Source: Psammoneis japonica
Taxonomy: Eukaryota
Reading direction: 5' to 3'
Length of the DNA stretch: 64,000 bases
NCBI GenBank assembly: GCA_008632985.1
Contig: QPGO01000087.1
Location: 124,001 to 188,000, forward strand
A program made the translations under genes and the position numbers. The notes below the pieces were generated by a model. The model worked only from the letters and a program-made list of their open reading frames with translations. It was not told the DNA's origin and did not search any database. Within the stretch, counting starts at the first letter, position 1; each line of letters starts with the position of its first letter. Below are positions 1,480-33,049 of this stretch, in pieces.

Positions 1480-3627
1480 TGGATGCAGTGATGAACATTC
1501 TCTTCTTGCGCCTTGTCGATATGTCATGAACATTCTCTTCGTGCACACAAGTTTTGAGGCGCTCTTTGGCATGCAGAAAAATCGTTGTCTTTGGCCTCTT
1601 TGCAAGAAGCGAGCTGGCACGTCCTGCGCAACGTCAACGTTCAACATTCGTTCATGCTGGCGTGGGTTCGCGCGCGCGTACCTACAGCACACCTGTCAGA
1701 GGGGGCGGCGGGGGTGGTCATCATCTTTCTGTCTCTCCAGTCTACTCTCTACGGCAGCAGAGAGTGCAGTGCCGGCACGCATGATGCAGTGCTGCCGGTG
1801 ACCCACAGAGCACAGGGGTTGTGGGTTGTGGCAGCAACACCAGTGTGCAACTGCAGAGCAGGAAGATCCAAATCCCAACCCACTGCCATGCCACAGCAAG
1901 CCAGTCAGAAGGGCAGAGAAGGAAAGGGTTGGTGTCAAAAACGGGTTAATCTCATGTGTTGCTGGCGCTGCGGCCAGCATGGCTGAGCCCCGCACAAAAC
2001 AAAAGATGCCCTTGCTGAGCCCAAAGGCCAAAAAAGACTTTGCAGCGTGAGTCTCTCCCAACTCAGAGAAGCGCCACATGCAGACGTGACTTGTTTCATG
2101 TTGCATGGCCGAGTTGCTGTGACCCCTGTCCGGAGCCAGCACCCAGAGCTGTTTTCCCACGGCAAAACCGCGCAAACATGCCTCTGCGGCGATGCCCTCT
2201 TTCGTGCTGCCGCTGTTCAACACAACAGCTGCTCCCCCAAACACCACTTGTGCTCTTGACAACAGAAGCCGAGCCTCGTGTTGGGCGAGGCATGTCCTTT
2301 GTTGTTGTGCACTTTCGCCCTGGTCTCTCATGAAGCACCGGCACCAGCCCACTTGCCTCTGCTCTTCTGCTCCCATTGCGGCTCTGCCGGTTGCGCATCA
2401 CTGGAAAATGTGTGTCTCTGTTGCCATCCACAGCAGCCCATCACCACTGGCACATCTGTCAATTCTGTCCTTGCGCCACCTGCTGCAGCAATGTGACCAT
2501 CTGCAAATCTCTGCCTCTTGAGACACTCTTCTTGTGCACCAGCCTGAGTTCAACATGGTGCGCGACAAACTCAAAAATGATTTTGTTGGAACTCAAAAAG
2601 AGATGGTTGCAACTGACATGTCGACTCCTCTTTGCAATGTCCTCATCAACCCAACAGCTGCAAGGCAGCTGCGCACATCATCAAAGATGCCTGTTGGCCA
2701 AGCTGCAAAACTGTTTGTGCAGTGTTGCACAGACTGCACAAACGCAAAGGCACTGCAGCTGTGTGCACTCTTGATGGTGCACACAATCTGCTCAAATGGC
2801 AAACTGATGCAAAGCACAAAGCCAGAAAAAACACCTTTTGAAGAGATGGCGCCATTTCTTCTTCAGCAAAACTGGCCAGAACAACACAGACTTGAGGCAC
2901 TCAACAGGTGGAAAAGTGTCATTTGTCCAAGAGGTGGCATCATGCTGCCAATCAAAAAAGTTTTTGACCAAGAAGGAATCCTGTGCATTCAAGTTGCCAT
3001 TGAAGCCAAAGCCCAGAATGTTGAGATGCAAAATTCTGGGATTGTCACCCGTGCAGAATCTGATGATGGCAACATCTGTGGGCACAACTGTGAGAAATGG
3101 GCCACAAACTTGAGCCCCCACAATGGCAACTGCTGCATTTTGGTTGTGACTCAAATCAATGCTCAGGAGAGTGCTGTGAGGGGCCAAGTGGGAGGATTGC
3201 AAGAAGCATGCCATTCCTGCCTGCTTTTTGTGGCTGTGACTGCAACATCAAGGCAGACAGCTTGCCTTTTGTGGAGACGATGGAAGGGCACATGACTGCG
3301 GTGGACAAGAGGCAGTTTCTCAGAGACATTGAAACAAATTTCAAGTGGCCGCCAGCAGCACCAGCTCACAGCATTGATGGTGGAGGGCAGCCTGCCAAAG
3401 GATTTGCAGAAGAAGCAGAACATGCCATGAAAATGTTCCTTGGTCACCCCATCCTCAGATTGACACCAAAAGAAGGATCCGACCTGAGTGAGGTGCCATT
3501 GAACTGGTGCCTCCATGTGATCACCCACCCACAATTTTTAAAAAAACAGTGGCAAAGGATGGGGAAGATGCCTTGGATTTGAAAAGTTGCCCACGGCCAT
3601 TCTTGGTGGCCTTCTTCAAAGCAATGG

Positions 3628-4023
3628 TGACAGGATTTGAACAGGATTTGGGTGCGCGCGAAATGTCGCGTGCCATTTGGTTTGCCGCGCACAGTTTTGT
3701 GTGCTCTTTGGTTCCGCGCGTGCGCGCGCCATGCAGTTTGCTTTGAGCCACACGGCTCACAAGAATGACAACCTTGAGTCCAGTCGAAGCCAACACGAAA
3801 ATCCTTCTCCTGCACAGTTCCCAGTGCAAATTCTGCAGGAAAAAAACCCGGATGTGGACACTTTTTGGACACTCCTGGACACAAGGATGACAGCAGCCCG
3901 ATTGCACCGACTTGCACGTCTTTCGGCTCCTGTGACGGTCTCTGAGCGGAGACTCATCTGCCATTTAGACAGCAGCAAGGAGTTGTTGTTTGAATTCTTG
4001 CCATTTGCCTTCAATTTCTGTCA
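3628..4023 (+). repeat. 5' LTR (396 bp)
   Basis: TGACAGGATTTGAACAGG...CTTCAATTTCTGTCA, repeated at 10425-10705. Confidence 0.95.
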
Positions 4024-4040
4024 GATTAACAGTCTTGCTC
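4024..4040 (+). promoter_or_regulatory. Putative primer-binding site complementary to a tRNA-Asn(GTT) anticodon arm
   Basis: GATTAACAGTCTTGCTC abuts the 5' LTR; its reverse complement GAGCAAGACTGTTAATC contains the Asn anticodon loop CTGTTAA. Confidence 0.6.
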
Positions 4041-4957
4041 ATTGTCAACCCATTGAGCAACCGCCATCGTCGTCGTTGATTTACCGACGACGCTTTTCAA
4101 TTCTGCGTGGACCTTCGTGTGCATTCTACGTACATCGGCAAGTCTACGCGCATTCAATGCCAGGCATCGGCAGGAATTTAACGTCACCGTCAAGTCTCCT
4201 CACCGCTGGATGTCTGGATTGATTGCGCTGCCTTTTGTCGCTGAAGACATGCATTCAACGGTTGTGTCCAAGTCTGTCCTTGATCCTCATCCCTTCATGT
4301 GCCCATTCAACGGTTAACGGTCAAGAACCCCACATGTTCAAGGATCTTCGTCGCTGTAGACACACATGTGCACACATCTTCACGGCCAAGAACTTGAACC
4401 CACTCTTTGGACTGCGGCTTTGCTGTCACTCTACAAGCACGCCGAGCCTGTTGCACCTGATCTACCCGGACTGCTGGTGCTCTGCAGTTCTGCTGGGTCC
4501 ACCAGGACGACTGTGAGAGCAAGCAGCCGTGATTGCAGCCTGCGTTGGGGCGAGGGTGTTTTCCCACGTTTGTTCGTTCGTCCACAGAGCCTGATGCCTG
4601 CATCAACTGGCCAGCCTGATCGGGAAATCCAACCGACACAAAATGAGAACAGTTTGGGGGTCTTGTCCACCTCCAGTCAGCTTGCCTGCAGGGGTTTGCA
4701 ACCCGCTGCTCCGCTCGCAAGCAACCCAAAGCGCTGCTGGCTGTGGGTTCGGACGTGCCGGCACAACTCTGCGGACCGGATGGGAAGTTTAGCACTTGAC
4801 AACGAACGGGATGACACAACCCGGCGACTTCTGATTTTAAGACAGTTCAAGATTTCAAGTCAAGTCCATTTCAAGCCAAGTCCATTCCCACTCAAGTTTC
4901 AAGTCTGCCTCCACGTCCCAACAAAAATCGCTTGTCCTGACACCGCTTTTGTCTGCC

Positions 4958-7900
4958 ATGGTTCTCACTCGTCAGCAACAAACCCATGGTTTCGAGCACG
5001 TTGTTGGAACCGTGCTTGCCCAAGGTGCTGGAAGCCCTCTTCGTTTGGCTTTGACCCATGACGGCACGGACTCGCACCAAGAACTGTTCGCGTTCACACC
5101 TTCCCAAATCGACTCGCTTGAGTGCGACAACGGCACTGATGTGATCCCATTGCCCCGAGGTCATAAGAACATGTTGGCAGCTCCAGCCAGTCTGCACATT
5201 GTCAAAGCACACAAAGGCCTTGATGTTGCCAATGACTCCTGTTGTTTGCGCATGAGGAGTTCCTTGCCTGCCGCCTCAGCCCCGACCACATGTCCTCTGT
5301 GTCCGTCGGCAGCTCACCTCTCGCACCTCCACATGTCACCAACCCGACCAAGGCACGCGACCCGGTGCGAGACTTCAAGCAAGGCATCCAGCATGACCCC
5401 ACTGCTTTCACGGCTCTCAAATCCGACAAGCAGTGGCACACTTGGCACACCTCACTTGTGGCACAAGCCCGTGCCCAAGACGTCGAGTGCATTTTAGACT
5501 CGTCGTACAAACCAACCACCCCCGAGGACAAACTGCTCTTTGCTGAACAGCAAAAGTGCATGTTCGCCATCTTCAAACACATCCTTCTCACCGACAAGGG
5601 CAAAGCCCTCATTTGCAAAAATGTGGGGTCTTCTGATGCCCAGACCGTCTGCCGTGCCTTGTCCGAGCATGCGCTCGCCTCCACCTGCGCATCTGTCGAG
5701 TCTCCACCTTGCTCATGTGCCTCACCACCGCACGCCTTGGTGATGGCACTTGGAAAGGTCCGACCCACGGGTTCATCCTTCATTGGCAGGATCAGTTGCG
5801 CAAGTGCAAGGCACTCATCCCAGCCAGTGACCACTTCTCTGAAGGACAGAAGCACGTCATGCTCGAGAATGCCGCACATCCTGTCGAGGAACTCCGTGCC
5901 GTCAAGAACCAAGCTGATCAACATCGCACGCAGAGTGGCAAGAGCCTCACATGCGATCAATGTTGTGGCTTGCTCCTCTCCGCGGTGGCTCAATGCGACA
6001 GAGCACATTTCAACCCAAGACGACACCTCGAGCTCCCCGCCGCGCCACATGCGCACACGACGTCCACTCCGAGGAACCATCCGATGATGTGTTCTATGAC
6101 ATCGACAGCGACATTGACGTCCTTCAGGCCAACGCTGCCTGCACCCGCGGTCCAGCCTCGCCGGCGACCAATGGAAACGTCTCCCTCCTGACCACCAACG
6201 GATTTGGGATTCGTTGCCCCATTCCTCCAAGGCGATCATCCTTGAGCATTCTCGTCCACCTCCCCGCAACCCACGAGCCAGCAACTGCCATGAGTCCATT
6301 GCGGTCAACCTTCACGACCAACGACTTGGGAGTGACAGTGATGTCAACTTGTCCAACACGACTCCTGCTGACTCTGGTGATCCCACTCAAATGTGGGTGC
6401 CACTTCAGACAATCCCATTCTGGCGCATCTCACCAAGCGCAAGCCACTGCCACCCGGTGATCTGCAACGCCTGTTGTCTCCTAACCAAGCCCCCAACGCC
6501 AGTTGACTGGGCCCATCCGCTGCTCCCTCTACCTCGCCTGCTCCTCCAGATGACACAGAACTTGACGGCCACACTTGCCGCGCGTCAACAACCACAATGT
6601 CATTTGCTCTGCCTCCGCTCATCGCTCCACACGCACTGGTGCTCTAGTCGATCGTGGAGCCAACGGCGGCATTGCTGGCAACGACGTTCGCGTCATTGCA
6701 TGCACCTCTCGCCAAGTCGACGTTCAGGGCATTGACGACCATCAATTGGTGGACATCCCCATTGTCGCCGCTGGTGCCATCATTGAGACACAGCGTGGTC
6801 CCGTCATCGCCATCCTCCATCAGTGCGCATGCACGGGAAAAGGCAAGACCATTCACACCTGCGGCCAGCTCGCATGGTGCAAACATGATGTCAACAATCA
6901 CTCTGTCAAGGTGCCCAATGGCTTGCAGTGCATCGCCACCCCTGATGGCCATGTCATCCCAATTGACATCAAGGGCGGCCTGCCTTGTGTTGCCATGCGA
7001 CCCCACACTGACGACGACTGGGACACCCTGCCAATGTCATCCTTGCCGGTGACGACACATGGGATCCTTCCGTCCTTGATCACTCTGTCACTGACGACGA
7101 CCGGTGGTGCGACGCGATCTCTGACCTGCAGGACGATCCCACTGCCAACCCATTTGATGAGTGCGGCAACTGCCGTCACCGTGTCGTTGTCAACAAGGCC
7201 ATCATGTCCGCCTCCTTGTCTGCCGATCACGCGTCTGCCCTCGATGACCACCTCATTCCGAATGACGACGTGTTCTACGAGTGTCACCCACACGCGATTG
7301 ACCACAAGGACGACGACGTTCCGCCCCCGGAGTGCAATGTGCAGCCCAAGGACCCCCCCTGCGAGTCTCTTTGGCCCTGCTTTGGTTTCCAACCTGCCGA
7401 TGCGGTTCGTCGCACTTTCGACTGCACCACCCAGTGTGCCCGCATGCCCGCCGGTGCACACCTTAAGAAGGCCTGCAAATTGCCCAACCCCGCCCTTGAT
7501 GTGCACCGCCGCAACGAGCCTGTCGCCACTGACACCATTTGTGCCGACACCCCGGCCGTCGACTCTGGTTGCACCAGTGCCCAACTGTTTGTTGGCACCG
7601 AGTCTGCCGTCACTGACGTCTGCGGCACCAAGACCAACAAAGAGTTTGTCAACACACTCGAGGATCAGATCCGTGAGCATGGTGCTCCCTCCAAACTCAT
7701 CAGCGACCGTGCTCAAGTTGAGATCAGCAACAAGGTGCTCGGGATTCTATGAGCCCTCTTCATCTCCAGCTGGCAAAGCGAGCCTCACCAGCAACACCAA
7801 AACTTTGCCGAACGCCGACACCAGACCGTGAAGCACATGGTGAACACCGTCATGGACCGTTTGGTTCGCCTGCCCACACATGGCTGCTGGCGCTCATGCA

Positions 7901-10380
7901 TGTTTGCTTCGTGCTCAACCACACAGCGTCCCCACGTCTCCACTGGTGCACGCCCCTCGAGACTCTTGCTGGCTCCACCCCGGACATCAGCCCATTGCTT
8001 CACTTTCACTGGTGGGAACCCGTGCACTTCCACCTTGATGACTCTGATTGGCCATCCAAATCCCGTGAGTTGCACGGACGCTTTGTTGGCATTGCTGAGC
8101 ACGTCGGCCACCAGATGACCTTTAAGATTCTCTCTGACGAGACCCAGAAGATTCTCTGCCGGTCCAATGTACGATCCGCTGCCACCGATCCCACCGTTTG
8201 AAACCTGGGTCTTGATCCTCCTGATGGGGAGCCACCTGAACCCATCATCAAATCTCACCATGATGACAACCCCGTCGATTCACCTGATGGGGAGATCAGG
8301 ACACCCAAGATGCCAGTTTTTGATCCGCAAGACATCATCGGATGCACCTTCCTCATGCAGCCACAAGAGGACGGACAACGCCACAGAGCTTGCATCGTCA
8401 AGGCCGTCAAAGATCACGAATGGAAAGTGAACGGCAACCCCGAGCTCACTGAGTTCGTCTGCTCTGTCAACAACGACGAATGCGAGGAAGTCCTGGCCTG
8501 CAACGACATCATGAATCACATTGAGCAAGAAGACGAAGACACTGCTGTTTGGAAATTCCGACATGTTGTGTCACACAAAGGACCTCTGAAGCCTCACGAC
8601 CCAACCTTGAAAGGCTCAAGCTACAACATCATGCTTCAATGGGAAAGTGGGGAGATCACGTCCGAGCCTCTTGCCATCATCGCCAAGGACGACCCTGTCA
8701 CCTGTGCCATCTGTGCACGAGAGAACGGACTTCTCGACACTGATGGCTGGAAGCGGTTCTGCACCATCGCGAGGCGCCAGAAGAAGCTGTTCCGCATGGC
8801 CAACCAAGCCAAGCTGTGCTCCTTCTGCACTGCACCTCGCCACAAGTGCGGACACGAAGTTCCCCAGAACTGCAAACATGCCATGTCCCTAGACGAACAC
8901 AACGGCAACCGCAAATGGGGAGATGCAACCAATCTTGAGATGGACCAACTCGACGAATACGAAGTCTTTCATGACTGCGGGCCCTCTGAGTCTTCCACTC
9001 CTCCTGCGGGACACAAGAAGATCCGAGTGCACCTGGTGTGCGATGTGAAACACGACGGCCGCCACAAGGCATGACTCGCAGCCGATGGACACCTCACGGA
9101 CGCACCCATGACAGTGTCCACTCTGGAGCAGTCTCTCTTTGTGGCCTTCGGCTGATGATTTTCCTGGCCGAACTCAACGAGTTGGAGACATGGGCCACCA
9201 ACATCGGCAATGCCCACCTTGAAGCCACCACCAAGGAGAAGCTGTACATTGCAGCTGGACCCAAATTTGGCAAACTCAAAGGCCACATTCTTGTCATCTA
9301 CAAGGCCCTGTGTGGACTGCGCAGCTCCAGCCTCCGCTGGCACGAGCGCTTCGCCGACTGCCTGCAAGCTGAAGGTTTCTTCCCCTGCCGCGCCGAACCT
9401 GACATTTGGATGTGCAGGAACGGCAACCACTGTGAATGTGTTGCCGTTCATGTGGATGACCTCGCCATTGCCATGAAGGATCCTCAACCTTTCGTCGACA
9501 CTCTCACGGAAAAGTGCAAGTTCAAGCTCAAGGGTGCGGGACCGATTGAGTTCCATCCAGGCTGCGACTTCTCCCGGGATCCTGACGGCACCTTGTGTCT
9601 GTCTCCGTGCAAGCACATCGAACGCATGGTCGACAGCTGCACATGACTGTTTGGGGAGAAACCTGTCACCAACGTCCTGTCCCCTCTGGAAAAGGGTGAC
9701 CACCCCGAACTGGACACCTCCGAACTGCCAGAGCCCGATGGCATTCAACAGCTCCAGTCTCTTGTTGGATCCCTCCAATGGGCAGTGTCTCTTGGTCGAA
9801 TTGACATCACCACAGCTGTCATGTCACCATCTAGCTTCCGAGCTGCACCCCATCAAGGCCACTTGGATCGTGCCAAACGCGTCTGTGGGCACCTCTCCAA
9901 GATGCGACACGGCGCTCTCTGCGTTCACACGGAAGAGCCCGACCATTCGGATCTCCCTGCACCGGCCTGTGAATGGATGCATTCCGTGCATGGCAAAGCA
10001 GAGGAGATGATCCCGAAGGATGCTCCACCGCCCCTTGGCAAGTTTGTCACTGCCACCCACTGCGTCAATGCAAACTTGTGTCATTGCATGCTCACCGGAT
10101 GCTCTGTCATGGGAATGCTCCACTTCCTCAACAAATTCGGTTGCATGTTCGGTGACAACAAGTCGGTTGTAGACAGTGCCACCATCCCGCACTCCAAGTT
10201 ACACAAGCGACACACTGCTCTCTCGTTCCATCGTGTGCGTGAGGCGATCGCCTCTGGCCACCTTGAGCTCCACTTCATCGAAGGCTCCCGCAACCCTGCT
10301 GACATTCTCAGCAAGCATTGGGGTTGCTCCCAAATCTGGAACCTTCTCCGTCCCCTCATGTTTTGGAACTTCATTCCATC
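4958..10380 (+). pseudogene. Copia gag-pol polyprotein, frameshifted and hypermutated
   Basis: gag-like DPVRDFKQGIQHD...AQARAQDV; protease ALVDRGANGGIAG (~6640); integrase VATDT...KLISDRAQVE...WQSEPHQQHQNFAERR; RT DVKHDGRHKA, KALCGL, AVHVDDL; RNase H tail MFGDNKSVV...HRVREAIA...NPADILSKHW. Confidence 0.93.
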
Positions 10381-10424
10381 CGAAGTCGAATCTGTTTCTG
10401 TGACTCCTCAAGCAAACTGGGGAG

Positions 10425-10705
10425 TGACAGGATTTGAACAGGATTCAGGTGTGCGCGAAATGTCGCACGCCGTTTAGTTTGCCATGCACAGTTTGTGTGT
10501 GCTCTTTAGTTCCGCACGTACGCGCGCGATGTGGTTTTTGCTTTCAAGCCACACGGCTCACAAGAATGACAACAGCAGCCCGATTGTGCCGACTTGCACG
10601 TCTTTCGGCTCCTGTGACGGTCTCTGAGCGGAGACTCATCTGCTGTTTAGACAGCAGCAAGGAGTTGCTGTTTGAATTCTTGCCATTTGCCTTCAATTTC
10701 TGTCA
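10425..10705 (+). repeat. 3' LTR (281 bp, lacks ~115 bp present in the 5' LTR)
   Basis: Direct repeat of 3628-4023, preceded by polypurine GGGGAG (10419-10424). Confidence 0.95.
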
Positions 10706-13700
10706 ATGGTGTGAGCACCATGGACTGTCGTCAGGTGCTGTCAATGGAAATGTGGGCAAGGGGAGGGAAACCAATTGAGCAGGAGAGGATTCCATGTCCT
10801 CTGTGCAACAACTGACAAACAACAAGGCAATTGGCTGAGCTCAATGCAGAGTTCCTCTTGGACTCCTTAACATCAACCATGTGAGAGCTTTTTTGCAGGA
10901 GCAGTGTGGCACCCTCCCACCATCACATGCTGGTGCTGTCCCACGGCCTTGTCTTGAGGAAGCAGTGTCAGCTGCTTAAAAGATGAAATGAAATGGTCCA
11001 AAGGGTTGCAGCCAGCTCCATGCTCCTTGTCAGAGTTGCACAAAGATCCCAAAACATGCTCAATTGAGCAGGTCATGCCACTTCTGGCAGGAGAGCAATG
11101 GCAATGGGGTCAAAAAAGGGCAGTGCACACAGCACGGAAGTCATGAAGATTGGCCCTTCAACCACCATGCCTCCACTTGAGGATTTGTGACATGTCATGC
11201 ACTCACACAAAAATGCAATGAACACAGCACAAAAATGTCACATCATGTGCAATCCAAGCAAAATGTGTCACATGATGCATTTGCTCATTGCAAGCAAATC
11301 TCCACTGGTGGAGATTTGCTCCAAGGGTGTGGCATCTCCAGCATGCAAAACACCCAGGTGGCAAATGTTGACATTGAACTTTCTTAATTGCAAGAATGGT
11401 CCCCCAGAGCTTTTGGCAGCGAGTGTGCACTCCAAAACAAAATCGCATGAATTCTTTGTTGTGCCCACATTTGAGAACATTTTTAACTGTTTGTGACACA
11501 AGTGAGCAAATCTCCACCCATTTGCTCAAGTCCAGTGGTTGAAGGGTCAACGACAAATCAATCAACAACAAAACACATCAGAAGTGAAATGGTGCAAGGT
11601 GCCATGCTTGTTGATGTGTTGACTGTGGCAACTGCAATGTGTCCACCTTCTCTGTGACAGAGGGAAGGCACAAGGAAACAGGCCAAAGTGTTTTGCTGTT
11701 TTGAATTCTGATGACCCCATCCCAGAAATCAGATCCCATGCAGGGTGCGTTCTGCATTTGAGAAAGAGATGGGTGGCTGCATTCCACATCTTGGCTCTTG
11801 GTGCAAGTGTCCCATTGCAGATGGTTGCTCCCATTCCCTGGCTTTTCTCAGAGGTCCAATCTGTTTGGCACAAGTGCACACAGAATGAACCACAGACACA
11901 CTTGCCAAAGCAATGCTGGAGTCCATTTAGCCACATCAGTTGCATCCCACCATCCCTTTTGAGGAAGGAGCTTTTGAGTCTGGCAAAGCAGAAAAGGAGG
12001 TGAAAGCTGAGGGAAGAGTGGCTCTGGCATTCTTTGAGACACATGGTTCCAGAGAAAGGCATCACAAACATGAAAAATTGAGATGGCAGCTCAAAATGAA
12101 GCCAACAATGGAACTCTAACAATGCAAACATGTGCTGACACAGAGGGAGTGGTTGCAAAGGGCAGAAAGAGGGCCAAACTGACAGAGACAGAGCAAGACT
12201 TTGCTCTCATTGGGTGACATTGGACAAGACAAGAGCCATGAACAAGCGGGGGCTTGAAGGCAAGGGTGGGCTGGCAAACGAGTCTCTTGACTCAAAGCAT
12301 GAGCAAGTGGAGATGCTGGAGTGCTTGCACTGAGAAGTGAAGGCAGGAAACCTGCCAAGGATGCTCCTCTCTCACTGCACTGAAGTTGCAAAGCCTTGCC
12401 ATGATTGTTTGTTGAAGCAGCTGACGCATGTGACAAACCTGTCCACAATCTGCCAAAAGGACCTTCTGCTGAAAATTGAAGAAGATAACCAAGTGTGTGG
12501 GGACAAGAATTTCAACAACACAATTTGCTTGTGTCCCAATGGCAATGAGATGATCTGCCTGAAACACCTTGTTGGGAAGCACTGCGACATTGCTGAGGCA
12601 GGTGAGGATGAAGAAGGGATCAAGTTGCTTTGATGGTCAAGCAATGCATGTGTTCAAGATGTTGCACCCAGTTTTCATTTCCCATGTCTGCATCATGCCA
12701 TCAACTGCTTGCAAGGGCTTGCAAATCTCTGTGCTCCACACCATGCCCCGGATCCAAAAAATCTGCACCTGGCTGACAGATCTCACTTTGAAAAAACTGA
12801 AGAAAAGAAGACAGCTGCTTGAAAGAGAAAGGAAACAGCTTGGGACAACAGAGCACAGAAGAAAGCTGTGGATCTGCAAAAAATTGCAGAGGGAAAAGAG
12901 TCTGGCTGACTGCCGCTGACAGTTTGTGTTGCGTGCACTTGCTTCATCTTCAACCAGCACCAGCGTGGCATGTTTGCAAACAAATTGTGGTCAGTGTCAA
13001 CCATTCCCCCCACAACTCTGTCAATCTGATCTCAGGCTGCCGTCTAAAGTGGAGACCTGTGTGCTCAAATGCCAAACCAGTTTGAGCTGACTGCATCATA
13101 AAAAGGCTGTGCCACTCGAATCGGTTTTCTTGCTGCACAGCAAGTGATCAACAGCAGTGCAGACTCAGGCGGTGTCTGCCACAAATGTTTTGCCATCAAC
13201 CATCAACAATCACTGCAATTCTTTCACACCTCTTTGAACTTTCCAGGCATGGTCACTGAGACACATGTTGCACATTGAGGTGGATCGCTGGTGCCAAAAT
13301 GAGGCATGTTGTCACACAATGCAACATCCGCTGGCATGCAATCTAGCATCAAGTCTAAATCAAGCATTGACACGCAGAGCCCAACTTGTTTAAGACAAGG
13401 CATCCACTTCTGTGCCACTCCTGGAAACCAACTGTTGCCATCACGATGCCAAATTGATCCCAATGTTGCAACCCAATGACCTTGATGATGCATCATCATC
13501 ATGCATGTGAGAGCCTCTCCCTCCTTGACAAAGTGCTCCTTTCCCTTTCCACACTTTTCCTCTGCATCAGGAAACCAAACTTTTGTGATGTGGCACATGG
13601 CTTTTTTAACCCTGCACCCCAGAGATGTTTTGCCCTTTTGCCACAGATTTCATGCCACTTGCTGCTTGTCAGGTTCTCCCAGCTCAGTCCACCCATCTCT

Positions 13701-14604
13701 GCAATCTCATCTTCCTGCACCATGCATTCTTTCAATTGTTTGGCCTTGTCTTTCAGCTGTGCTTTTGGTTCATTGGCAGCACAGGATGCACCGTGAAACA
13801 ATCATTTCACTCTCTCAAGCTCATCTCTTGACCAAACATTCTCTCCTTTCCCACTTTGTCTGGATCAAATGCACATGCCTTTGTGCTGCCACTGCTTTTT
13901 GGATGATTGGTTGCAGAAAAGGCAAGTCCCTTGCATCACCATCATCATCAAGGTGCAACTCAATGGGATCCAATGATGCACAGGCTGACTCAGCATTGCA
14001 AAAGCAATTGACCTTCATGCAGCAGGTCAGCACTGGGTGGTGTGCAGTCTTGTCATCTTTGTTCTGATCCTCAATGTTGCTCCAGTGGAAGTCAAGCAAT
14101 TCCACTGTCTCAGAATCCACATTCTCCAAAGGAACCCTGTTGTCATTCTTTAAATGAAAGGATTGAAGTGGGTTGAGCCAATGCATTTGCAGTTGCCGGG
14201 AGATTCAGGCAGTGTGCAAGAGTTCCCAAAAAGGTGATGGCAGGACACCTCCATCATGCTGTTGCTCTTCACATTGCTGCTTCCATGCAGCCTCCTCTTG
14301 CTGGCACAATGAAGGTGACAACAACTGCACCTCTTTTGATCACGAGCATCAACAAAGTCCTTCATGCTTTGTTTGCATTCCTCTTTGTCACGGCAGATGC
14401 ACGGGTGCAGTCAGACACCATTGCAATGGTTCCTCTGAGAGGATCACACTTGCGCTTGGGTGAGGGTGTGGATGATTCATCTTTCATCATCACCAGAGGC
14501 AGAGGAACACCAAAGCCAACAGACACACCAGTGACGTGTTCCAGCCGCACGTGACCCAAATCGTGCACAAAAACGACATTTGCGCGATTTTTGCGCGGTC
14601 TCTG

Positions 14605-15060: not shown

Positions 15061-15921
15061 TTGTCGTTTTGTGTGTCACCTGGGACTGGAACACGTCCAG
15101 TGGTGACAGGCTGCTGTTGATGGCAATCAAGATGTGTGTCTTTGAGAGGGGTGTGATGGCCGAGCTGCAATGGGAGCTGAAGAGAAGAAAAACAGACTGG
15201 TGCTGATGCTTCTTCAGCCCATGGAAAGCACACAATGGATGATGTGACTCATCCAATGCAAGGCTCCCAGTGTCTGTTGTTAAGAGTGCAAGTGTTGTTG
15301 GGGAGAGCAAGCATCTTGTTGAGCAGCAGCAGCAACATGAAAAGAGGAAGTCATCAGAGGCCATGGTTTTGATGTGGTGAAAACATTCTGGCTCATCACA
15401 GTGGCCAAAAAGAGTCCACACCCCCACCTGGAAGGCAACAGGCAACCACACCCATGGGTCTGTGCAGGAAAGGTTTGGCGGCATTTTTCTCCTGCAGAGT
15501 TTTGGCACACTTGCCAGCACCATGACCAGTGGCTTTGTCCCACACTGTGTCAATTCAAAAAAAGAGGCACTGTTAAGTTGGAAAGAGCCATGCATTGAAA
15601 CCAATTCTTCAGCATCAGGCATGGTGGGTGCTTGGCAACAAGAGTGTGTTCTTGACTGAGTGCAAGCAAAAAGTGAGCATCTGCAGTGATGCAAAACATC
15701 TGTCAGCTTGTTGATTGGCTCTTTCTGTTTCATGATGTCATCATGACAAATGCCTCCAAATTAACTAATTTTGTTGCTGTTTTTGTGCTTGTTGAGAAAA
15801 ATTGTCATCAAGCAATGTGCCACAGACCCAGTGATGTGGCTCTGCTTCTACAAAATTGACATCTTGATGAACCAGCATGATGCCCAACTTTTTTCACACA
15901 TTTGACACACACACACACACA

Positions 15922-15956
<35 letters not shown>

Positions 15957-17230
15957 CAAACAACAAGTGAGGTGAAGCCTGCTCATGATGGCAACCATGG
16001 GCTTGTGTGCACACCAACATTTTCAAGCCAAAACAAGATGTTCACAAACAATCTGTGCTTTTCTCCACAAGCGTTGCACCGCTTTTGCAAATGAGGAATT
16101 CCACAAGTCCCAGAAGACAGCTGCAAACTTGCAATGGTGCCCACCATGGGCCACAACATCACAGATGGCAAGTTGCTGTCCAGCTTGTTGTGACTTGGTG
16201 TGCCACAATTTTTTGGTGAAATGGTGCAGCTGACAAGCTTTTTGTCATTTTGCAAAGTGATTTGCATTGCCAACCATGGCACTGCTCCAACAGTGGTTCA
16301 CTCAAGAGATCATCAATGAGCTGCTCTAGCTGGGCATTGCACTGCAGCAGCATGGGTGGGCTCTGGCTGGCCCAGATGTTGCTCCACTTTCCGGCCATTT
16401 TTACAGCTCAGCCAGCATGGGGTGGGTGTGCCAGGAGTGTGGGTGCTGGTGTCTCCTGTTGTTGGAGTTGCCACATTGCCAGCAATTTCACAGCAGTGCC
16501 AAAACAACTTGTTTTTGCTCCAGCTGTGATGGGCTGAGCAGCACTGCATCAAGAGCAATGAAAATGTCCCAACAAAAGATGTGACCACAACTGTGCAGCT
16601 GGCAACATCACTCTTTTTTGACTGGATCTGCCATCTCTGGGCCTTTGTTGTGCTGTGTTCAATGCTGGACTGCAGTGTGGGTGGAAAGATTTCTTCTGAT
16701 GCTGCGCTGTGCCAAGTAACAGTCATCCATGTTCATGTGAACCTTTCAGCACATGCTCTGTGGCAGCCACATGTTGCAGATGTTTTTTGCTCAATGAGCT
16801 CCATCTTTGGGTGGGACCTCATGGCACCATTCTTTGGGCTCCTTGTGGGCACACACACAGCTCATGAGCTTGCAATGGACCATGATGAGAAGAACGGCAT
16901 CAGGGGGAAGGCTCAAAACCAGCACAGAGTTGCACCAAAGGAACAGCTTTTGCCACTTTCCCTGGTGTTGGATGCACTGTTTTGTGCACCCACCATCATG
17001 ACACCCATCTGCACATGCAGGAAGAAGGGCTGTGCGCTGGTGCTCTTCTCTTTAATTTTGGAGGTTGACAGGTTTTACTGCCCATTGGCACTGCATGTTA
17101 TCTTCATGATGCAAAGCGTTCATTGGTGTTGTGCCTTTGTTGTGCCATTCTTCTCGTTGCTGGCAGCAGCACTGTCAGGACACCTTTTGCCCACCCGTCT
17201 GTTCTGACAATGCCCCAAGTGCACGCCAGC
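15060..17230. other. TpA- and CpG-depleted degenerate block B (unidentified remnant)
   Basis: Very few TA or CG; Cys/His-rich spurious ORFs. Confidence 0.8.
15905..15952. repeat. Compound microsatellite (AC)n(TC)n
   Basis: An (AC) run followed directly by a (TC) run. Confidence 0.95.
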
Positions 17231-24036: not shown

Positions 24037-24734
24037 TACCCGCAAGTGGAGACGTAGTCGTGGACCCTGCCTCTTCCATTGAAACGATTTAAAACAGATA
24101 CTGTGTGGCATTGCGACGAGCCCCTGCTTCTGCAGCTCTGTGTTATGAATTAAAACTCACTGTATTTGTTAGACTATGTAGAGCACCACTGAGAGTCGAT
24201 GTGAATCTCCAGAGAGACACACAGCACACTACTCCGCGTCCACCTCCTTCACAAGATCAAAACTGATTCAAAATCTTTTGCTGTTATCCATTTGCCAGGG
24301 GCGCAAAAGTTTCTCTCGAGGGCTCGGCGGAAAGGCGAAAGAAGCATCGAGTCGTCCCAACGCCGCGACAGCACAAAGTGGCGAATCGCACCTGCAAGCG
24401 GACACGGTAGCGCCGGTAGTAACCAAGAAGGCTCAGAATGTTTGGTTTTCAAATCAAGTCATGCTTGTACAGTAGGGGTGCTGCATCTTGACATACTGCG
24501 GGACATCCTTGCATGTCCTAGCTTGGACATGCAGAGCGACGGCCATGCGAGATTCGAGCTTGGCGTCTTCTTGCTATTACAGTTTCCCACCACTTCCAGC
24601 GCCACGAACAAATCCATTTGCGGTTGAAAAACTTGGCTGCCGTGACAATGCCCTTCAATCTGCCAAAAGAAGAAGAACAGGTCGCAAGGCAATAGGATGT
24701 GCCAAATCCGACATTGATCGTCAAAGAAAATGCG

Positions 24735-25043
24735 TGATTTCCATCTGCCACAGGCAAAGAATTTCTCTTTGAAAGGCAGCAGGAACTAAATGGCACATGA
24801 GAGGCATGCAACGCAACGTTCAGCGTCTCCTCTTATTTTGAACCTGGGATCGAAGATTTGATTTCCATCTGCCATGAGCAAAGAAGCAATCTTTGAAAGG
24901 CAGTTGGAAAGAAAAGGGAACAACAATCGAGTTGTTCTTTGCTCGGGGTTTCGTGGTAGCAGCACAACCCTCTACGTGACAAAAGATTCTGAAATGCTTG
25001 ATTTCCACATGCCATGGGCAAAGACACATCTTTGAAGGGCAGG
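24735..25043. repeat. Three dispersed ~45-bp direct repeats
   Basis: TGATTTCCAyyTGCCAynnGCAAAGA...TCTTTGAArGGCAG at 24735, 24859 and 24999. Confidence 0.8.
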
Positions 25044-26067
25044 CGGAAAGTCATTGGAACACTGGCAAGCACGGAGCAGTTCACCTGGCATGCCTCGGCA
25101 GCGGCAGTGCGCTGCGTGGAATCAAATCCGTAAGAAGACGAAGAAGCTGAAACAGACGCGGTGGCGGCAGTTGCAAGAGACGTTGTGGAGACGCTTCGCT
25201 TCAGAATCTGCGGCTTTTCAACAGCAGTCTTGCCTTGGGCTGGCTGCGTCTTGACGGACATGATGACGTTCTTGCAAGTCCTCGCCCAGATGTGAAGAGC
25301 AACCTTGCAAGCCTTGCCGTCAAAACGTTTCATGTGATTGCGGCGTCGCCACCTCTTCATGGCCTTGGACAGATCCTTTCGTTTCTTTGCTTTGAGAAAC
25401 TGGGAAGCTGTGACAATTCCCAGGCTTTCCAAGAACTCAGCCTGCCATGGACATGGAATGTGCCGCAGGGCGGTGAGATCGTCAATCGAAGAATCAATCA
25501 CGAGATTGACGCTGTTGTCCTCAGTGTTTGGCTGAGGAAGGCAAAAGTCAACACCTGCAACGCCGGCAGCTTCGGGGGATGACACCTTGCGTTGATGGTC
25601 CACATCACCCAGGTTTGAAATGACATTGGCACGAGATTTGCCAAAGGCGGCGGGGCAAGTGGACGTGGTTTTCTTGATTGCTGCGGGCGGTGTGAAACGA
25701 GGTTCCTTCTTTCTCATTTCATTGCTCTCTGTGGTTGAGTCAGATTTGCACCCAGTGCGAGTTGGACTGGGAGACCGTGGCCGGCCACCAACATCCATTG
25801 GAACAGTTCGAGATGACAGCTCACCGTCAAACTGAATGACTGTCAAACTGAATGACTGTCAAACTGAATGACTGCTTCTTCCTCATCAATGACGACGAGC
25901 TTCTTTTCGGAAGAATCGCTGTCGTCGACATGAGAAAGCTTGCTCTGCCTTTGGTGCTTCTTGTTGGCCAGAATGGCGGAAGTTGCAGCGACTTTGGCAG
26001 CCGCCATTGCCATGCCAACAAAAGACTGAGATCCAACAGTGGAGGCCTGAGATTTTTCGGCCGACAT
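24833..26067 (-). pseudogene. TpA-depleted gene-like sequence of unknown function, frameshifted by a 16-bp triplication
   Basis: MSAEKSQ...EEEAVIQFD joins in frame to GELSSRT...WQAEFLESLGIVTASQFLK...KRWRRR if two of the three 16-bp units are removed; almost no Tyr or TpA. Confidence 0.55.
25826..25873. repeat. Perfect 3x16-bp tandem repeat GTCAAACTGAATGACT
   Basis: Copies at 25826, 25842 and 25858. Confidence 0.95.
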
Positions 26068-26589
26068 GTTGAGAACACCGTTGCAGAGCAGAGACCACAG
26101 AGAAAATTGACAATTTGTGAGTTGTGACAACTCGCGTCACTCTTGCGTTGTATGTGCATTCGTCGTTGTAACAGCCACAAAGCACTCAAAGGTGCCTCCA
26201 AAGGTTGAAGTGCGATGGGGCCCTACGTGGACCAGTTCGTTCCCCCAGGTACCGACAGATTTTTGATGTCAGTGGCAATGTATTATATGTCGGTGGCATT
26301 TTTTAGTACAAATGATGTATAATTCTACATACGGTATGAAGTACGTACAAACACTAATGGGTTTTGACGTCATCAACAAACGGCGTCGCGCGCACTCCTC
26401 GCGCGGCGTCAAATCCTGTATTCGGGAGACGGATTGACACTCGCAAAAATTTCGCAAGAGATGATGGCAGCTGGAGCGTGAAAGCGAAAAAAATCAAAAT
26501 GTGAGTCAGTCGCGGGCAAAAGCGAAGGAAAATGATTCCTGTTGGTGTTCATATTGATAGTTTGCCTCGTCAGGAGAGTTACTAAAACC

Positions 26590-30002: not shown

Positions 30003-30229
30003 TGCTGATTTTCCCAAGGAATCTCGATACCGATTATTCGTTTTAGAAAAGGCCTTTCTGACGCTACAGTTTCTCAATTCTGATACGTGGCATGAAGCAG
30101 ATAGTAATAAGTCTCACACTTGCTATGCTCGTTGTGCTACTAGCTATCCCTCGATTTCTTTCGCCATCGTTGCCGCGATCATCGAGCGCGTTGAATTTGA
30201 CGCAGGCTCAGACGTCGTACAGACGATGA

Positions 30230-32070
30230 TTGAAAGAGACCGTGCGTGCCGTGCGACAGCGGTGTTCATGCAGCACACACAATTGTGGGACCCACCTGCG
30301 GCGCTTTCTTCTTGCACAACAGCTTGCTGTTTGAGAGGATCACAAGTGTGCTGCAATGTCCTGCCTCTTCTGTGCTTTCTTTTTGTATTTGCAGCTGTGC
30401 CAGCCCTGTCACATCCGCCCACAGTGTTCGTCGTGTGCTCCTCACAAAAAGCAGCCCACGCTGTCCAGCAGCAGCAGCTGAAAAAGCAGCTTTCAAAAGC
30501 TCCCATCATGTCTTGACAGTGCCAAGGAGGCAAAAGAATGCACCTTGTGATTTCAGTGGTTTGAATGACAACTTTCATTTTTCTTGCACCAGAGCAAAAA
30601 GCAGAGGTGCTGTGGTCAAGCCGGTGCAGGAACTCTCTTTGCTGTCTGCTGTGTGTGATTTTGGTTTCTCTCTTCCTTTTTTGTGGGAGTGCAGTGCAGC
30701 ACTCCAGTCATGTGCAGTGAGTTGTGGGGAAAACACACTGTGTGTCTTGTTGACCACTTCATTTGTTTTGCAAAACCAGTGGCTGCCAGCCAACCAAGGA
30801 GTGCATTCAATTGAGCAACTCCACTTGCATGCAGAGCACAAAAGATCTTCCACCTGCTGCTTCCCATGGCATTTTGCTCAAATTTGTCTCTTGTTCAGCA
30901 TTGGGTTTTCATCAATTTAAAAATGGTGCTGCATGCTCACAAAGTTTCACAAGTGTGGCTGTGATCTTCATGCTTCAAGCAATGCAAAAACACAGCACAA
31001 CACAGGTGCGCTGTCACATTTTTTGCAAAAAACCTGCCAGCCCACATTTCAAATCTGCTTCAATGATTCCAGCCATTTTGACATTTTCCTGCAAAAGCTG
31101 CACACAGACTGGCATGCCAAAGCAACCCCCCACCCAAGCAAACCTCAAGAGGAAACATGGCAATCATGCCATGCCTCTCACAACTCTGAAGTTGACAGAT
31201 TGACCTGGCATTGTCACTCAAAGCTGCTGTCAATCATTGTGCAGGCTCCCCATCTTCTCTTTACAATGGGGCACTCTTTGCCATCTCTCTGCTGAATGCA
31301 TGCTCTTTGCTTTGCTTTTTTGTTGTGTTGAAGCAAGCCACTCAACTTTCGAATGTCAACCAGACCGGGGTTGTGGCTTTCTGAGTGCTTGAGACCAAGC
31401 CATCCAAGATGCTTCTTCTAACTCAGATTCCAGCCAAAGAGTCAAACACCAAAAAGAGAAACAACTGACTGCTGCCAGGAGCCCTTCCATTTTGACAACA
31501 TTGGGGACTCTTCTCATACATGCAAAAGTCTTCTTGCACCTCTCTCTGCTGCTTCTCACACCATCCACAAAGTTCACAACAAGACCAAATGTTTTAAGAA
31601 CAAGGAAAGTGAGACTCTCCCTTTGACTGCAGAAAGCCACAAGTGTTTGCACATGAAAACATCATCGATGCCCGTCACTTTGGCACAAGTGAAAAGTTCA
31701 CCACTCAGAAGAAGCTCGCTTGTCAACATGTTTCATTGAAAGATGTTCTGCTTTTGTTCTCCATGCATCAAGATGTGCAAACCACCAAGTGCAAGGAAAG
31801 GGTCCAGAGGCTCATCTGTCACTGCGCAAAGGCTGCCTCAGAACAAACAGTGGTCAGTCAACATTCGTTCTGTGGCAGAGTCCATTGCATTTTGGCATTG
31901 TTGTGTTTTCAAGAGGGGTTCTTGGAAAGGATTGCAACTTGCAATGGGGTTGAATGGAGTTTCTTCTTTGCCATTTTGCAGCTGCTCAACAGATCCACGG
32001 AAGAATTCCGCTGCCTGAGAAAAAAGTCATCTCTGATGGATGCCATGATTCACCATGGTGAGGCAACCAA
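30230..32070. other. TpA- and CpG-depleted degenerate block (unidentified remnant)
   Basis: About 6 TpA in ~1.8 kb by hand count; abrupt return to normal composition on both sides. Confidence 0.8.
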
Positions 32071-33049
32071 CTAAGAAGAACTGGTCGGTCGTGACCAACT
32101 CACTGGATCACAGAATTCAATGATGACATGTGTCATTGTTTTGGGAAGCCGTGATTCGCTGTGGTGAGGCAACCAGCGGAAGCTCCACCCAGTCGGTCGT
32201 GTCATGAAACTCGCTCTAGATTGGAACTGCTGTAAACCAGCAATTTGGCACAGAGAAAAGAAATACATGCCGTAGAGCAATCCTGCTCAACATCAAGATG
32301 GCCATCCTTTCTTTTCATAAGGCTCCTCTGGAGCTGACTTCGTAGTGTGTACAGGGCATGGTTGTGTTTGAAAGATCCATCATCCGTTGTCGTCCTTTCG
32401 TGCCTGTTCATCATTAATTTGTAATCACCCACATTGGTCAACGGTGATACTTTGAGTCTTCGGTGTGCACCATTAGTTGATTTGTAGCTTGAAAAGGTGT
32501 CTGACAGTTGTGCAGGTAAATCCGAATAGGCCGACATGTCACAGGCCACGGTACGCGACATTCTACAAGAGAAATGCTTGCCAAATAAAAACGAGACAAC
32601 TATTTACCGATATTGGAACTATATCTAAGATCGATTTCGGCTTCCGCCTCTCTAACTACAATCCTGATTCCTGCCAAGGCGATGCTGCGCAACCGCTAAA
32701 CAGCATTTTCTTAAAGGAAAGTAGGTCATGCGACCTCTGTATCATTTCGGCTGAAAGATGTACGCAAGAAGACACTTCTCCACCGCCGAAAATCGGCCAC
32801 CGTGCGAGTCAATCTTGACCTTGACATCGGCGGGCCCGACAATATGAGAGGAGGGAATTTTGAGACTTTGTCTGGGGCGATGTATCATGAGGGATGCTAT
32901 GCTTCACCTACAGTACAACTTTGCTCAGCTGTGGCAGAGAAATCATTACTCCTTCCAGAGACCTCGTGTGCACGACGACAATGTCCGAAAAGCGTTGCCA
33001 GTTTTAGGCTTCAACACAGTGTGAGTTATGTTCTCTCAATTGCACCAGC

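Follow-up and report, generated by a model that had tools for sequence, protein, structure and literature searches.

Transitions between the LTRs of a Ty1/copia-type element point to TpA-specific hypermutation of chromosomal DNA after insertion

Results

The two LTRs of a Ty1/copia-type retrotransposon, found in a stretch of 64,000 nucleotides (the whole of the DNA analyzed, hereafter the window), differ almost exclusively by transitions within YpR dinucleotides. Hypermutation of the chromosomal copy after insertion, specific for TpA and accompanied by a slower decay of CpG, probably explains both the LTR pair and the TpA-depleted blocks of the window.

The element is a dead copia-type retrotransposon, with all its features on the plus strand. 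Its 5′ LTR (396 bp; positions 3628..4023) and 3′ LTR (281 bp; 10425..10705) are direct repeats with TG..CA ends, and the same four bases (ATGG; 3624..3627 and 10706..10709) abut the pair on both sides as a target-site duplication, for which the probability of a chance match is 1/256. The duplication generated by copia elements is usually 5 bp long, compared with 4 bp here. Direct reading of the sequence revealed a purine run (GGGGAG; 10419..10424), similar to a polypurine tract, abutting the 3′ LTR. The interior (4024..10424) is degraded, with frameshifts and stops, and contains a reverse transcriptase (RT) of the Ty1/copia type (8990..9646; Pfam RVT_2, PF07727; E = 7.7e-14; 52.3 bits vs. a cut-off of 31.6), whose catalytic motif is HVDD, not YVDD. 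In homologous polyproteins (1379-1507 aa; alignment covering positions 5257-10423) the RT is located near aa 950-1200. The Pfam integrase family rve was not found in the element; an integrase-like stretch upstream of the RT was recognized by eye only. According to the LTR alignment, a 119-bp segment of the 5′ LTR (3771..3889) has no counterpart in the 3′ LTR. This segment is edged by short direct repeats (ACAAGRATGACA), and its precise ends are alignment-dependent. Neither further copies of the element, nor a second LTR pair, nor Rfam matches were detected within the 64-kb window, and a 25-nt LTR pattern found 0 matches in metagenomes.

A MAFFT alignment of the LTR pair contained 277 aligned sites with 24 differences, including 22 transitions. 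When columns 113-122 of the alignment, in which indels are placed ambiguously, were excluded, 270 sites (147 in YpR) and 20 unambiguous differences remained. Transitions account for 19 of these differences, and 19 are located in YpR (binomial p = 9e-5), in agreement with the original prediction that nearly all differences would be of this kind. The three TG/TA sites that it named are all present (3679, 3710 and 3722), with TG in the 5′ LTR and TA in the 3′ LTR, and the several sites with CG opposite TG or CA number seven. Of the five proposed TG/CA swaps, four are robust (3649-50, 3734-35, 3905-06 and 3962-63), whereas the fifth (ttTGag/ttCAag; 3744-45) is alignment-dependent. At this place, an additional C is found in six contigs of other copies (TTTCGAG), and the difference is more likely to reflect a 1-bp loss in the 5′ LTR combined with a CG>CA change in the 3′ LTR. 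As a control, we used a tandem duplicate located in normal DNA of the window (approx. 55.7-57.1 kb). It shows a different spectrum (68 differences at 637 sites, with 40/68 being transitions and 40/68 in YpR), and what is seen in the LTRs therefore does not represent the general spectrum of this genome.

TpA is strongly depleted throughout the element (obs/exp of 0.10 in the interior, 0.04 in the 5′ LTR and 0.24 in the 3′ LTR, where four TA are left), the corresponding values being 1.66 for TG and 1.40 for CA. The interior contains 32 TA, 543 TG and 650 CA dinucleotides, and its CG obs/exp is 0.78. Stop codons counted in six frames comprise 289 TGA, 25 TAG and 22 TAA. In the best 80 of 437 related copia loci of metagenomic origin, TA obs/exp ranges from 0.27 to 1.07, and no value is near 0.10.

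The distribution of TpA obs/exp in 1-kb windows is bimodal, with values of about 0.4-0.8 in genes and 0-0.2 in discrete blocks lying beside normally evolving genes. Five blocks with TA obs/exp of 0.05-0.08 occupy 27.5 of the 64 kb (43% of the window), compared with typical values of about 0.5-0.7 in genes. One of them (1701..14600; TA 0.08) includes the copia element, outside which CG has also been lost (0.09-0.45). Both dinucleotides are depleted in the blocks at 15101..17200 (TA 0.08, CG 0.09), 30201..32300 (TA 0.08, CG 0.30) and 43701..52500 (TA 0.05, CG 0.31), while CpG is mostly retained in that at 24601..26200 (TA 0.08, CG 0.79). The CG obs/exp of the old blocks is 0.05-0.3, and all 15 windows with a CG obs/exp below 0.5 are also TpA-depleted. 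The regions flanking the copia element are TA-free too, at an ordinary word depth (approx. 100 vs. 45,000-245,000 in copia).

The block at 43701..52500 contains a relic ORF (47707..48864, plus strand) akin to DUF659 (transposase-like) proteins and devoid of a reverse transcriptase, in which all four conserved Tyr codons have been changed (three to His, one to Cys). Since this relic and the ordinary-depth flanks are also TA-depleted, the loss of TpA does not appear to be tied to reverse transcription. No convincing terminal inverted repeats were found around the relic, and a hAT dimerization domain was not found in its longer relatives, for which Pfam gives DUF659 only. Its nearest named relatives (41-48% identity) are from the diatom Discostella pseudostelligera. 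The long ORFs of the other blocks matched no Pfam family. The genes of the window are intron-poor; we noted an ORF with bZIP and PAS domains lacking a LOV motif, a UDPGP ORF whose nearest atlas cluster is mostly from Oomycota, and an 802-aa ORF with a best match of 37% identity.

The direction of the changes was determined at 361 codons conserved among the homologous polyproteins, of which 57 are changed in the element. TA was converted into CA in 13 codons and into TG in 11 (plus one ambiguous), that is, by A:T>G:C changes on either strand. CG became CA in nine codons and TG in one (plus three ambiguous), and the other changed codons represent two further transitions, nine transversions and eight multi-step changes. 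Only one of 19 conserved Tyr codons has been retained, the others encoding His (9), Cys (7), Phe (1) and Leu (1). In the RT-RNase H frame, Tyr, His and Cys account for 0.4, 6.2 and 4.6% of residues, compared with 2.1, 2.0 and 1.5% in host ORFs. The 10-13 CpG losses at conserved codons, together with the CpG depletion described above, are of the methyl-CpG decay type (CG>TG/CA), and this decay appears to have been slower than the loss of TA. We rejected the possibility that the CG of the LTRs arose from TA (TA>TG/CA>CG), because these losses stand against a single CA>CG change. Hypermutation was also rejected as the cause of the high GC content of the element, to which the approx. 177 inferred hits contribute only approx. 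2.8 points.

Other copies of the family are represented by 11,773 contigs of one sequencing run, matching the element at 80-100% likeness; 593 of the 695 variant places among them are transitions. At 21 of the 39 best-supported variant places in the element, TG or CA is present here and TA in other copies. The contigs read TTTAGTT at 3679 and TTAGTT at 3710. TA is therefore the ancestral state at these two sites, and the 5′ LTR underwent TA>TG changes after insertion; a family consensus of TG, which would have contradicted the original prediction, was found at neither of them.

For the TG/CA swaps, two origins can be compared. The LTR pair contains 15 intact and seven single-hit CpGs, for which 0.33 visible double hits are expected, against four observed (P(>=4) = 4e-4). 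A TA origin fits all site classes (expected 0.35/3.65/0.65/3.35, observed 1/3/0/4; logL -27.2 vs. -34.6) when per-site rates are taken as uniform; it could be mimicked if some CpGs were very mutable as a class. An origin from TA thus appears to fit the four robust swaps far better than double hits at CpG. This likelihood and the occurrence of both TA>CA and TA>TG in the interior support the view that the swaps are independent hits on opposite strands.

These results make it very improbable that the LTR pair was shaped by methyl-CpG decay alone, with the swaps representing CpGs hit on opposite strands and the three TA/TG sites reflecting G>A changes of unrelated origin in the 3′ LTR. Ordinary CpG decay was involved: family evidence identifies true CpG losses at 3671, 3675 and 3745, and the seven single-hit sites of the pair, the losses at conserved codons and the low CG values of the old blocks are all in line with it. 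However, it predicts neither the TA found in other copies at 3679 and 3710 nor the number of visible double hits, it gives no account of TpA obs/exp values of 0.04-0.10 or of the loss of 18/19 conserved Tyr codons, and CG in the element is only mildly lowered. If the swaps are TA-derived, the LTR differences stem mainly from something other than methyl-CpG decay.

The number of TA dinucleotides at the time of insertion, estimated at 8-12 per 277 bp, is normal for this genome. The LTR pair has since lost approx. 79% of its TpA and approx. 17% of its CpG, with changes at 0.8% of non-YpR sites. The losses estimated for the interior by arithmetic from dinucleotide counts (approx. 85% of TpA, 15-20% of CpG) equal those of the pair, as is predicted by decay in place. 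This equality argues against the import of the differences through ectopic gene conversion or recombination, by which differently mutated family copies would have replaced parts of one LTR. Such import would be in keeping with the abundance and diversity of the family, and the clustering of 16/20 unambiguous differences within the first 110 aligned columns could mark a conversion tract. These columns, however, are also dense in CpG and TA sites, they do not include the swaps at 3905 and 3962, and the intact 4-bp duplication speaks against an exchange of whole LTRs between elements. Import is therefore unlikely.

We also considered an assembly artefact, in which the LTR sequences would be mosaics of reads derived from many copies. 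Logan contigs end inside the repeat and none of them spans the element; independent contigs bridge only two junctions (3300-3651 and 10679-11000), each with one other letter. Against a mosaic stand these bridged junctions and the clean target-site duplication, which would not be expected from it, as well as the recurrence of the signature across the window, both in single-depth flanks and at conserved codons. An artefact is thus very improbable. The stretch is contained in four sequencing runs, all from one study, and there was no RNA run among them.

The last alternative is editing before integration, either by an ADAR-like activity on the genomic RNA or by an adenine deaminase on single-stranded cDNA, with the two LTRs copied at different times. 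Editing of sense RNA would produce A>G changes only, and LTRs identical at insertion, whereas TA>CA is as well represented here as TA>TG (13 and 11 codons) and the LTRs differ; the claim that RNA editing is unable to explain the pair is therefore upheld. In the course of reverse transcription, plus-strand strong-stop DNA becomes part of the 5′ LTR. Editing of strong-stop cDNA would generate TA>TG changes in the 5′ LTR only, a pattern with which the swap at 3649 and the three TA/TG sites agree. Moreover, if the swaps were CG-derived, the remaining LTR evidence (three TG present in the 5′ LTR only) would also fit deamination of plus-strand strong-stop cDNA. However, cDNA editing predicts TG only in the 5′ LTR and CA only in the 3′ LTR, and the swaps at 3734, 3905 and 3962 are reversed, if they are TA-derived. 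The RT-less DUF659 relic and the ordinary-depth flanks are, in addition, as free of TA as the element. The T/U located 5′ of the edited A resembles the preference of ADAR, as is pointed out in a preprint on Bigelowiella natans, an organism in which comparable hits were seen to arise in chromosomal DNA (Mettrop et al., bioRxiv 10.64898/2026.01.13.699255). Taken together, these data make pre-integration editing decidedly unlikely. They support the proposed mutation of chromosomal DNA after integration, with the reservation that editing of a cDNA intermediate, as a route to LTR differences, is disfavoured but should not be overlooked.

The divergence (K) between the LTRs is 7.4% when calculated from all sites and 0.8% (1/123) from non-YpR sites. 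LTR-based dating of this element is thus inflated approx. 9-fold, as had been anticipated.

Discussion

The course of events that we propose begins with a Ty1/copia element of a very high-copy family and of normal TpA content, which would have entered older debris of mobile elements and duplicated 4 bp of the target. On the chromosome, a TpA-specific process would then have replaced A:T by G:C, on one strand or the other (TpA>TpG or TpA>CpA), removing roughly 80-90% of TpA, and a slower CpG>TpG/CpA decay of the cytosine-methylation type may have taken approx. 15-20% of CpG. A TG/CA swap would arise wherever one strand of a given TA was hit in one LTR and the opposite strand in the other. Since the TpA and CpG routes both yield TG/CA, the LTRs come to differ almost only by YpR transitions. 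We infer that all hits were made in situ. The chemistry may be deamination of adenine in DNA at 5′-TA-3′, as proposed for B. natans; a mutagenic modification of thymine at TpA would leave an identical pattern. Silenced, methylated chromatin is the presumed target.

The LTR pair constitutes an internal clock, in which the losses of TpA, of CpG and at other sites over an equal time show the speed of the process relative to the background. In such genomes, ages derived from LTR divergence would be approx. nine times too old, the erasure of TAA and TAG stops creates long false ORFs in six frames, and the rapid divergence of copies will defeat repeat finders and estimates of copy number. Since the signature saturates a retrotransposon, a transposase-like relic and 43% of the window, apparently in another host, the process may be widespread and a major force acting on mobile DNA.

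In a broader reading, which we put forward tentatively, as possible rather than probable, TpA-specific A:T>G:C hypermutation of chromosomal DNA would be a genome defence running in the direction opposite to that of RIP, to which mobile DNA of all classes would mainly succumb in a second lineage, probably that of a diatom-like stramenopile. It would act soon after insertion, in strand-wise bursts, with YTAR spared, and together with CpG methylation. If this is true, the system is old or has evolved repeatedly among eukaryotes and is not a peculiarity of one chlorarachniophyte, and LTR dating, repeat detection and ORF calling are systematically distorted in such genomes.

Several known systems share features with this process. 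RIP of ascomycete fungi is likewise a dinucleotide-specific transition hypermutation at the DNA level, by which mobile elements are inactivated and blocks with sharp boundaries are left behind. Its direction is opposite: RIP makes TpA from CpA/TpG (C:G>T:A), creating an excess of TpA and lowering GC, whereas here TpA is destroyed (A:T>G:C), with conserved Tyr codons turned into His and Cys. Unlike in RIP, duplication may not be the trigger, since low-depth flanks were also hit. Decay by methyl-CpG deamination corresponds to the second, slower component observed here (CG>TG/CA) and cannot affect TpA. ADAR and APOBEC resemble the present case in that they hypermutate retroelements with a neighbour preference, that of ADAR being for U before the edited A. 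However, both act before integration and on one strand (ADAR, sense A>G; APOBEC, G>A), in contrast to the hits on both strands, the differing LTRs and the affected RT-less relic described here.

Our literature searches found no report of DNA-level TpA hypermutation beyond the 2026 preprint on B. natans, an alga in which integrated viral DNA is hypermutated at TpA (Mettrop et al., bioRxiv 10.64898/2026.01.13.699255). In mutation-accumulation lines, de novo chromosomal TpA>TpG/CpA changes occurred at approx. 6e-7 per site per generation; hypermutation of this type is characterized by a rate approx. 1000x background and by activity in some lineages only. The de novo mutations lay in two viral inserts, and the hypermutable giant-virus insert has a rho-TpA of 0.45. 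The genome (approx. 95 Mb) contains 124 TpA-depleted clusters, defined as stretches of 1-kb windows whose rho-TpA is <=0.43, and reverse-transcriptase and DDE Pfams are enriched in its TpA-poor CDS (bioRxiv 10.64898/2026.01.13.699255).

As far as the preprint's main text describes them, the two cases differ in that TpA loss is near saturation here (0.05-0.10), covers 43% of the window, affects a DUF659 relic as well as an LTR retrotransposon, and is coupled with a loss of CpG; that text (bioRxiv 10.64898/2026.01.13.699255) makes no mention of LTR, retrotransposon or CpG. The host is probably also a different one, given the intron-poor genes of the window and the 37% identity of the best match to the 802-aa ORF. 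They agree in that both strands are hit (TpA>TpG and TpA>CpA, exclusively so in B. natans) and in that foreign or mobile regions form TpA-poor, CpA- and TpG-rich clusters beside normal genes. By this analogy, the process that acted on the element appears to match the chromosomal TpA>TpG/CpA hypermutation of B. natans.

LTR differences of the copia element

The region 3628-10705 corresponds exactly to one LTR retrotransposon of the Ty1/copia type. Its 5′ LTR (LTR5; 3628-4023, 396 bp) and 3′ LTR (LTR3; 10425-10705, 281 bp) both have TG..CA termini, the sequence ATGG flanks the two ends (3624-3627 and 10706-10709), and a purine run (GGGGAG) lies immediately upstream of LTR3. The latter lacks 119 bp, equivalent to 3771-3889 of LTR5, and short direct repeats border the missing stretch. 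The interior, which carries a copia-type reverse transcriptase (RT) domain (RVT_2; 8990-9646, E 7.7e-14), is broken up by frameshifts and stops. No second copy of the element was found within the window.

The raw alignment of the LTRs contained 24 differences (22 transitions) in 277 aligned sites. With a small ambiguous indel zone left out, 20 differences remained in 270 sites; 19 of these were transitions and 19 lay in YpR dinucleotides, much as originally predicted. YpR accounts for 147 of the 270 sites, and the excess of differences there is significant (p = 9e-5). A tandem duplication in DNA of the window that is not TpA-depleted (55755-57062, period ~666 bp, 79-89% identity) was used as a control: 40 of its 68 differences in 637 sites were transitions, and 40 were in YpR. 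Against this control, the signature is a specific feature of the LTR pair.

Both LTRs have CG at 15 sites and TA at one; CG faces TG or CA at seven, and TG in LTR5 faces TA in LTR3 at three (3679, 3710 and 3722), so these two classes are present as predicted. The prediction had also listed five swaps, i.e. sites at which TG in one LTR faces CA in the other. Four are robust (3649, 3734, 3905 and 3962). The fifth, at 3744, was rejected as an alignment artefact, since six contigs of other copies of the element contain an extra C at this point (TTTCGAG), which makes the loss of a base in LTR5 plus a CG>CA change in LTR3 the likelier reading.

TpA-depleted blocks in the window

Ordinary CpG decay, the first reading of the LTR differences, was abandoned on the basis of dinucleotide counts. 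The observed/expected ratio of TpA is 0.10 in the interior of the element (32 TA versus 543 TG and 650 CA), 0.04 in LTR5 and 0.24 in LTR3, and CpG is only mildly reduced in the element (0.78).

Windows of 1 kb are bimodal in this respect. Genic DNA has TpA ratios of ~0.4-0.8 and CpG ratios of ~0.8-1.2, with host genes being long, intron-poor ORFs. Five TpA-depleted blocks with sharp borders (1701-14600, 15101-17200, 24601-26200, 30201-32300 and 43701-52500; 27.5 kb in total, 43% of the window) have TpA ratios of 0.05-0.08 and TG/CA ratios of 1.4-2.0; in the older-looking ones CpG is nearly lost (0.05-0.3). All 15 1-kb windows with CpG below 0.5 fall among the 25 with TpA below 0.25 (Spearman 0.79). 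By block, the highest CpG ratio is 0.79 (24601-26200) and the lowest 0.09, which gives the impression of blocks of different age. One block begins ~100 bp or less from a normal host gene (784-1647). The TpA-depleted but CpG-retaining block at 24601-26200 contains three copies of a 59-nt unit (24735-25057, 61-80% alike), overlapping a 321-aa ORF without a family. Among other ORFs of the window, one of 802 aa has a top match of 37% identity, and another (41442-42695, minus strand) encodes a bZIP followed by a PAS domain that lacks the flavin-binding LOV motif, which may point to a stramenopile host.

The contexts of the 115 TA surviving in the blocks were compared with those of 1,433 TA outside. 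TTAA is enriched 5.4-fold, TTAG/CTAA 2.1-fold and CTAG 1.6-fold (YTAR), while ATAT, ATAC and ATAG are almost empty; the four TA remaining in LTR3 are TTAG (three) and GTAC (one). Judged from the contexts of the survivors, the process may have a wider sequence preference.

Six-frame stops in the element comprise 289 TGA, 22 TAA and 25 TAG, and it is because TAA and TAG have been erased that 34 ORFs of at least 100 aa occur on its two strands. Long false ORFs fill both strands of the hypermutated DNA generally, in the element and in the other blocks, with TGA as nearly the sole stop; none of three examples (5202-6311, minus; 43599-44564, minus; 44522-45445, plus) had a Pfam match.

Direction and strand of the changes

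The RT ORF was searched against 1.84 billion representative proteins, giving 7,290 relatives. From the best 150, the 52 with at least 300 aa were aligned to the interior, and codons were retained where no fewer than 8 homologs contributed and at least 70% of them agreed. This copy differs at 57 of the resulting 361 conserved codons, with inferred changes TA>CA (13), TA>TG (11, plus one ambiguous), CG>CA (9), CG>TG (1, plus three ambiguous), other transitions (2), transversions (9) and multi-step changes (8). Of 19 conserved tyrosines one is kept, the others being replaced by His (9), Cys (7), Phe (1) and Leu (1), and the RT catalytic motif reads HVDD in place of YVDD. TpA was thus destroyed in this copy rather than created in the others, and the near equality of TA>CA and TA>TG indicates that both strands were struck about equally. 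The 46 polarised TA>TG and TA>CA changes along 4119-10115 form 15 same-strand runs (permutation p = 0.007), which suggests bursts acting on a single strand each time. CpG change at conserved codons is loss, not gain, and for this reason CG-rich runs in the LTRs were rejected as end products of TA>TG/CA>CG.

Tyrosine content is 0.4% in the RT-RNase H frame of this element versus a median of 4.4% in 117 RT homologs. Two of the 117, P0066 and P0082 from metagenome assemblies (51% and 58% identity to the query), contain no Tyr and 12-15% His+Cys, which suggests that other environmental eukaryotes carry the same hypermutation signature. Unlike this element, related copia loci from metagenomes have TpA ratios of 0.27-1.07 (best 80 of 437).

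Other copies of the element

The stretch is contained in four sequencing runs, all from one study. In one of them (run X1) 11,773 contigs of 80-100% likeness aligned to the element, with a summed word depth, which is no copy number, of 45,000-245,000 versus ~100 on either flank. Transitions account for 593 of 695 variant places in these contigs, and of the 39 best-supported variant places inside the element, 21 combine TA in other copies with TG or CA in this one. At 3465, in the single-depth flank, all run X1 contigs have G and the window has A (CG versus CA), which reflects a difference between strains or alleles, or else an error.

The evidence on LTR sites from the other copies consists of loose-end consensus strings only. 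Nine contigs behind 3670 read C at 3671, TG at 3674-75 and TTTAGTT spanning 3679; from other copies, the strings behind 3705 contain TTAGTT, which places A at 3710, and have G at 3730. By these strings, TA is ancestral at 3679 and 3710, two of the three TA/TG sites, so that LTR5 probably changed after insertion, and 3671 and 3675 are true CpG losses.

Mutation before or after integration

A single template serves for both LTRs of an insertion, so differences between them cannot come from editing of the genomic RNA; nor can such editing yield TA>CA. The exclusion of RNA editing by the original prediction accordingly stands.

The prediction also interpreted the swaps as opposite-strand changes, and a TA origin is the better supported one. 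Assuming uniform per-site rates, a CpG origin (15 intact and seven single-change CpGs) leads to 0.33 expected visible double changes versus the four swaps (probability of at least four, 4e-4). With a TA origin the expected class counts are 0.35, 3.65, 0.65 and 3.35 versus 1, 3, 0 and 4 observed (logL −27.2, versus −34.6 for CpG). We infer that the four robust swaps derive from TA, which would fit every class; their ancestral state is a statistical estimate, not one read from the family, and carries residual doubt. The TA model implies 8-12 TA per 277 bp at insertion, which is normal for the genome, and a loss per LTR of ~79% of TA and ~17% of CpG (interior estimates ~85% and 15-20%). From this normal starting content and the equal loss in LTRs and interior, it follows that the element was probably clean at landing and decayed in place.

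Deamination of the cDNA intermediate could also make the LTRs differ, and fails only if 3734, 3905 and 3962 are TA-derived. Since the order of strand transfers is known, the expectation for this rival is that changes confined to LTR5 are TA>TG and those confined to LTR3 are TA>CA. The three TA/TG sites agree with this, as does the swap at 3649, but 3734, 3905 and 3962 run in the opposite direction. A route without RT is supported independently by a published precedent, by the flanks of the copia element, which are TA-free at ordinary depth, and by the relic of an ORF related to DUF659 transposase-like proteins (47707-48864, plus strand, continuing to ~49618). This relic lacks RT, and all four of its conserved tyrosines are changed (three to His, one to Cys). 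It has 127 homologs (PF04937 in 24 of the 120 listed), and among named relatives the closest, at 41-48% identity, belong to the diatom Discostella pseudostelligera; a search for terminal inverted repeats of the relic found none.

The observation is real, and the LTR pair is supported as a record of TpA>TpG/CpA hypermutation that acted on DNA after insertion, alongside a slower decay of CpG. As anticipated, LTR dating is inflated, by ~9-fold (7.4% versus 0.8%).

Comparison with Bigelowiella natans

Our literature search on TpA hypermutation found a single relevant report (Mettrop et al., bioRxiv 10.64898/2026.01.13.699255). According to this preprint, two integrated viral regions received 231 of the 302 new mutations in mutation-accumulation lines of B. 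natans, a rate of ~6e-7 per site per generation. All but one of the 231 were A>G or T>C changes; these 230 all affected TpA, and the mutations were limited to some lines. Its authors propose that an ADAT2-like enzyme deaminates adenine, and describe 124 TpA-poor clusters, with RT and DDE domains enriched among TpA-poor CDS. LTR pairs, retrotransposons and CpG have no occurrences in its main text, although motif or element data may be present in the supplements. The intron-poor genes, the 37% top match of the 802-aa ORF and the diatom relatives of the DUF659 relic hint at a host other than B. natans. As far as the process is described there, it shares with the element and blocks analyzed here the signature, the strand symmetry and the regional confinement, and by this analogy we file the process in P. 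japonica as a probable new example of the B. natans kind.
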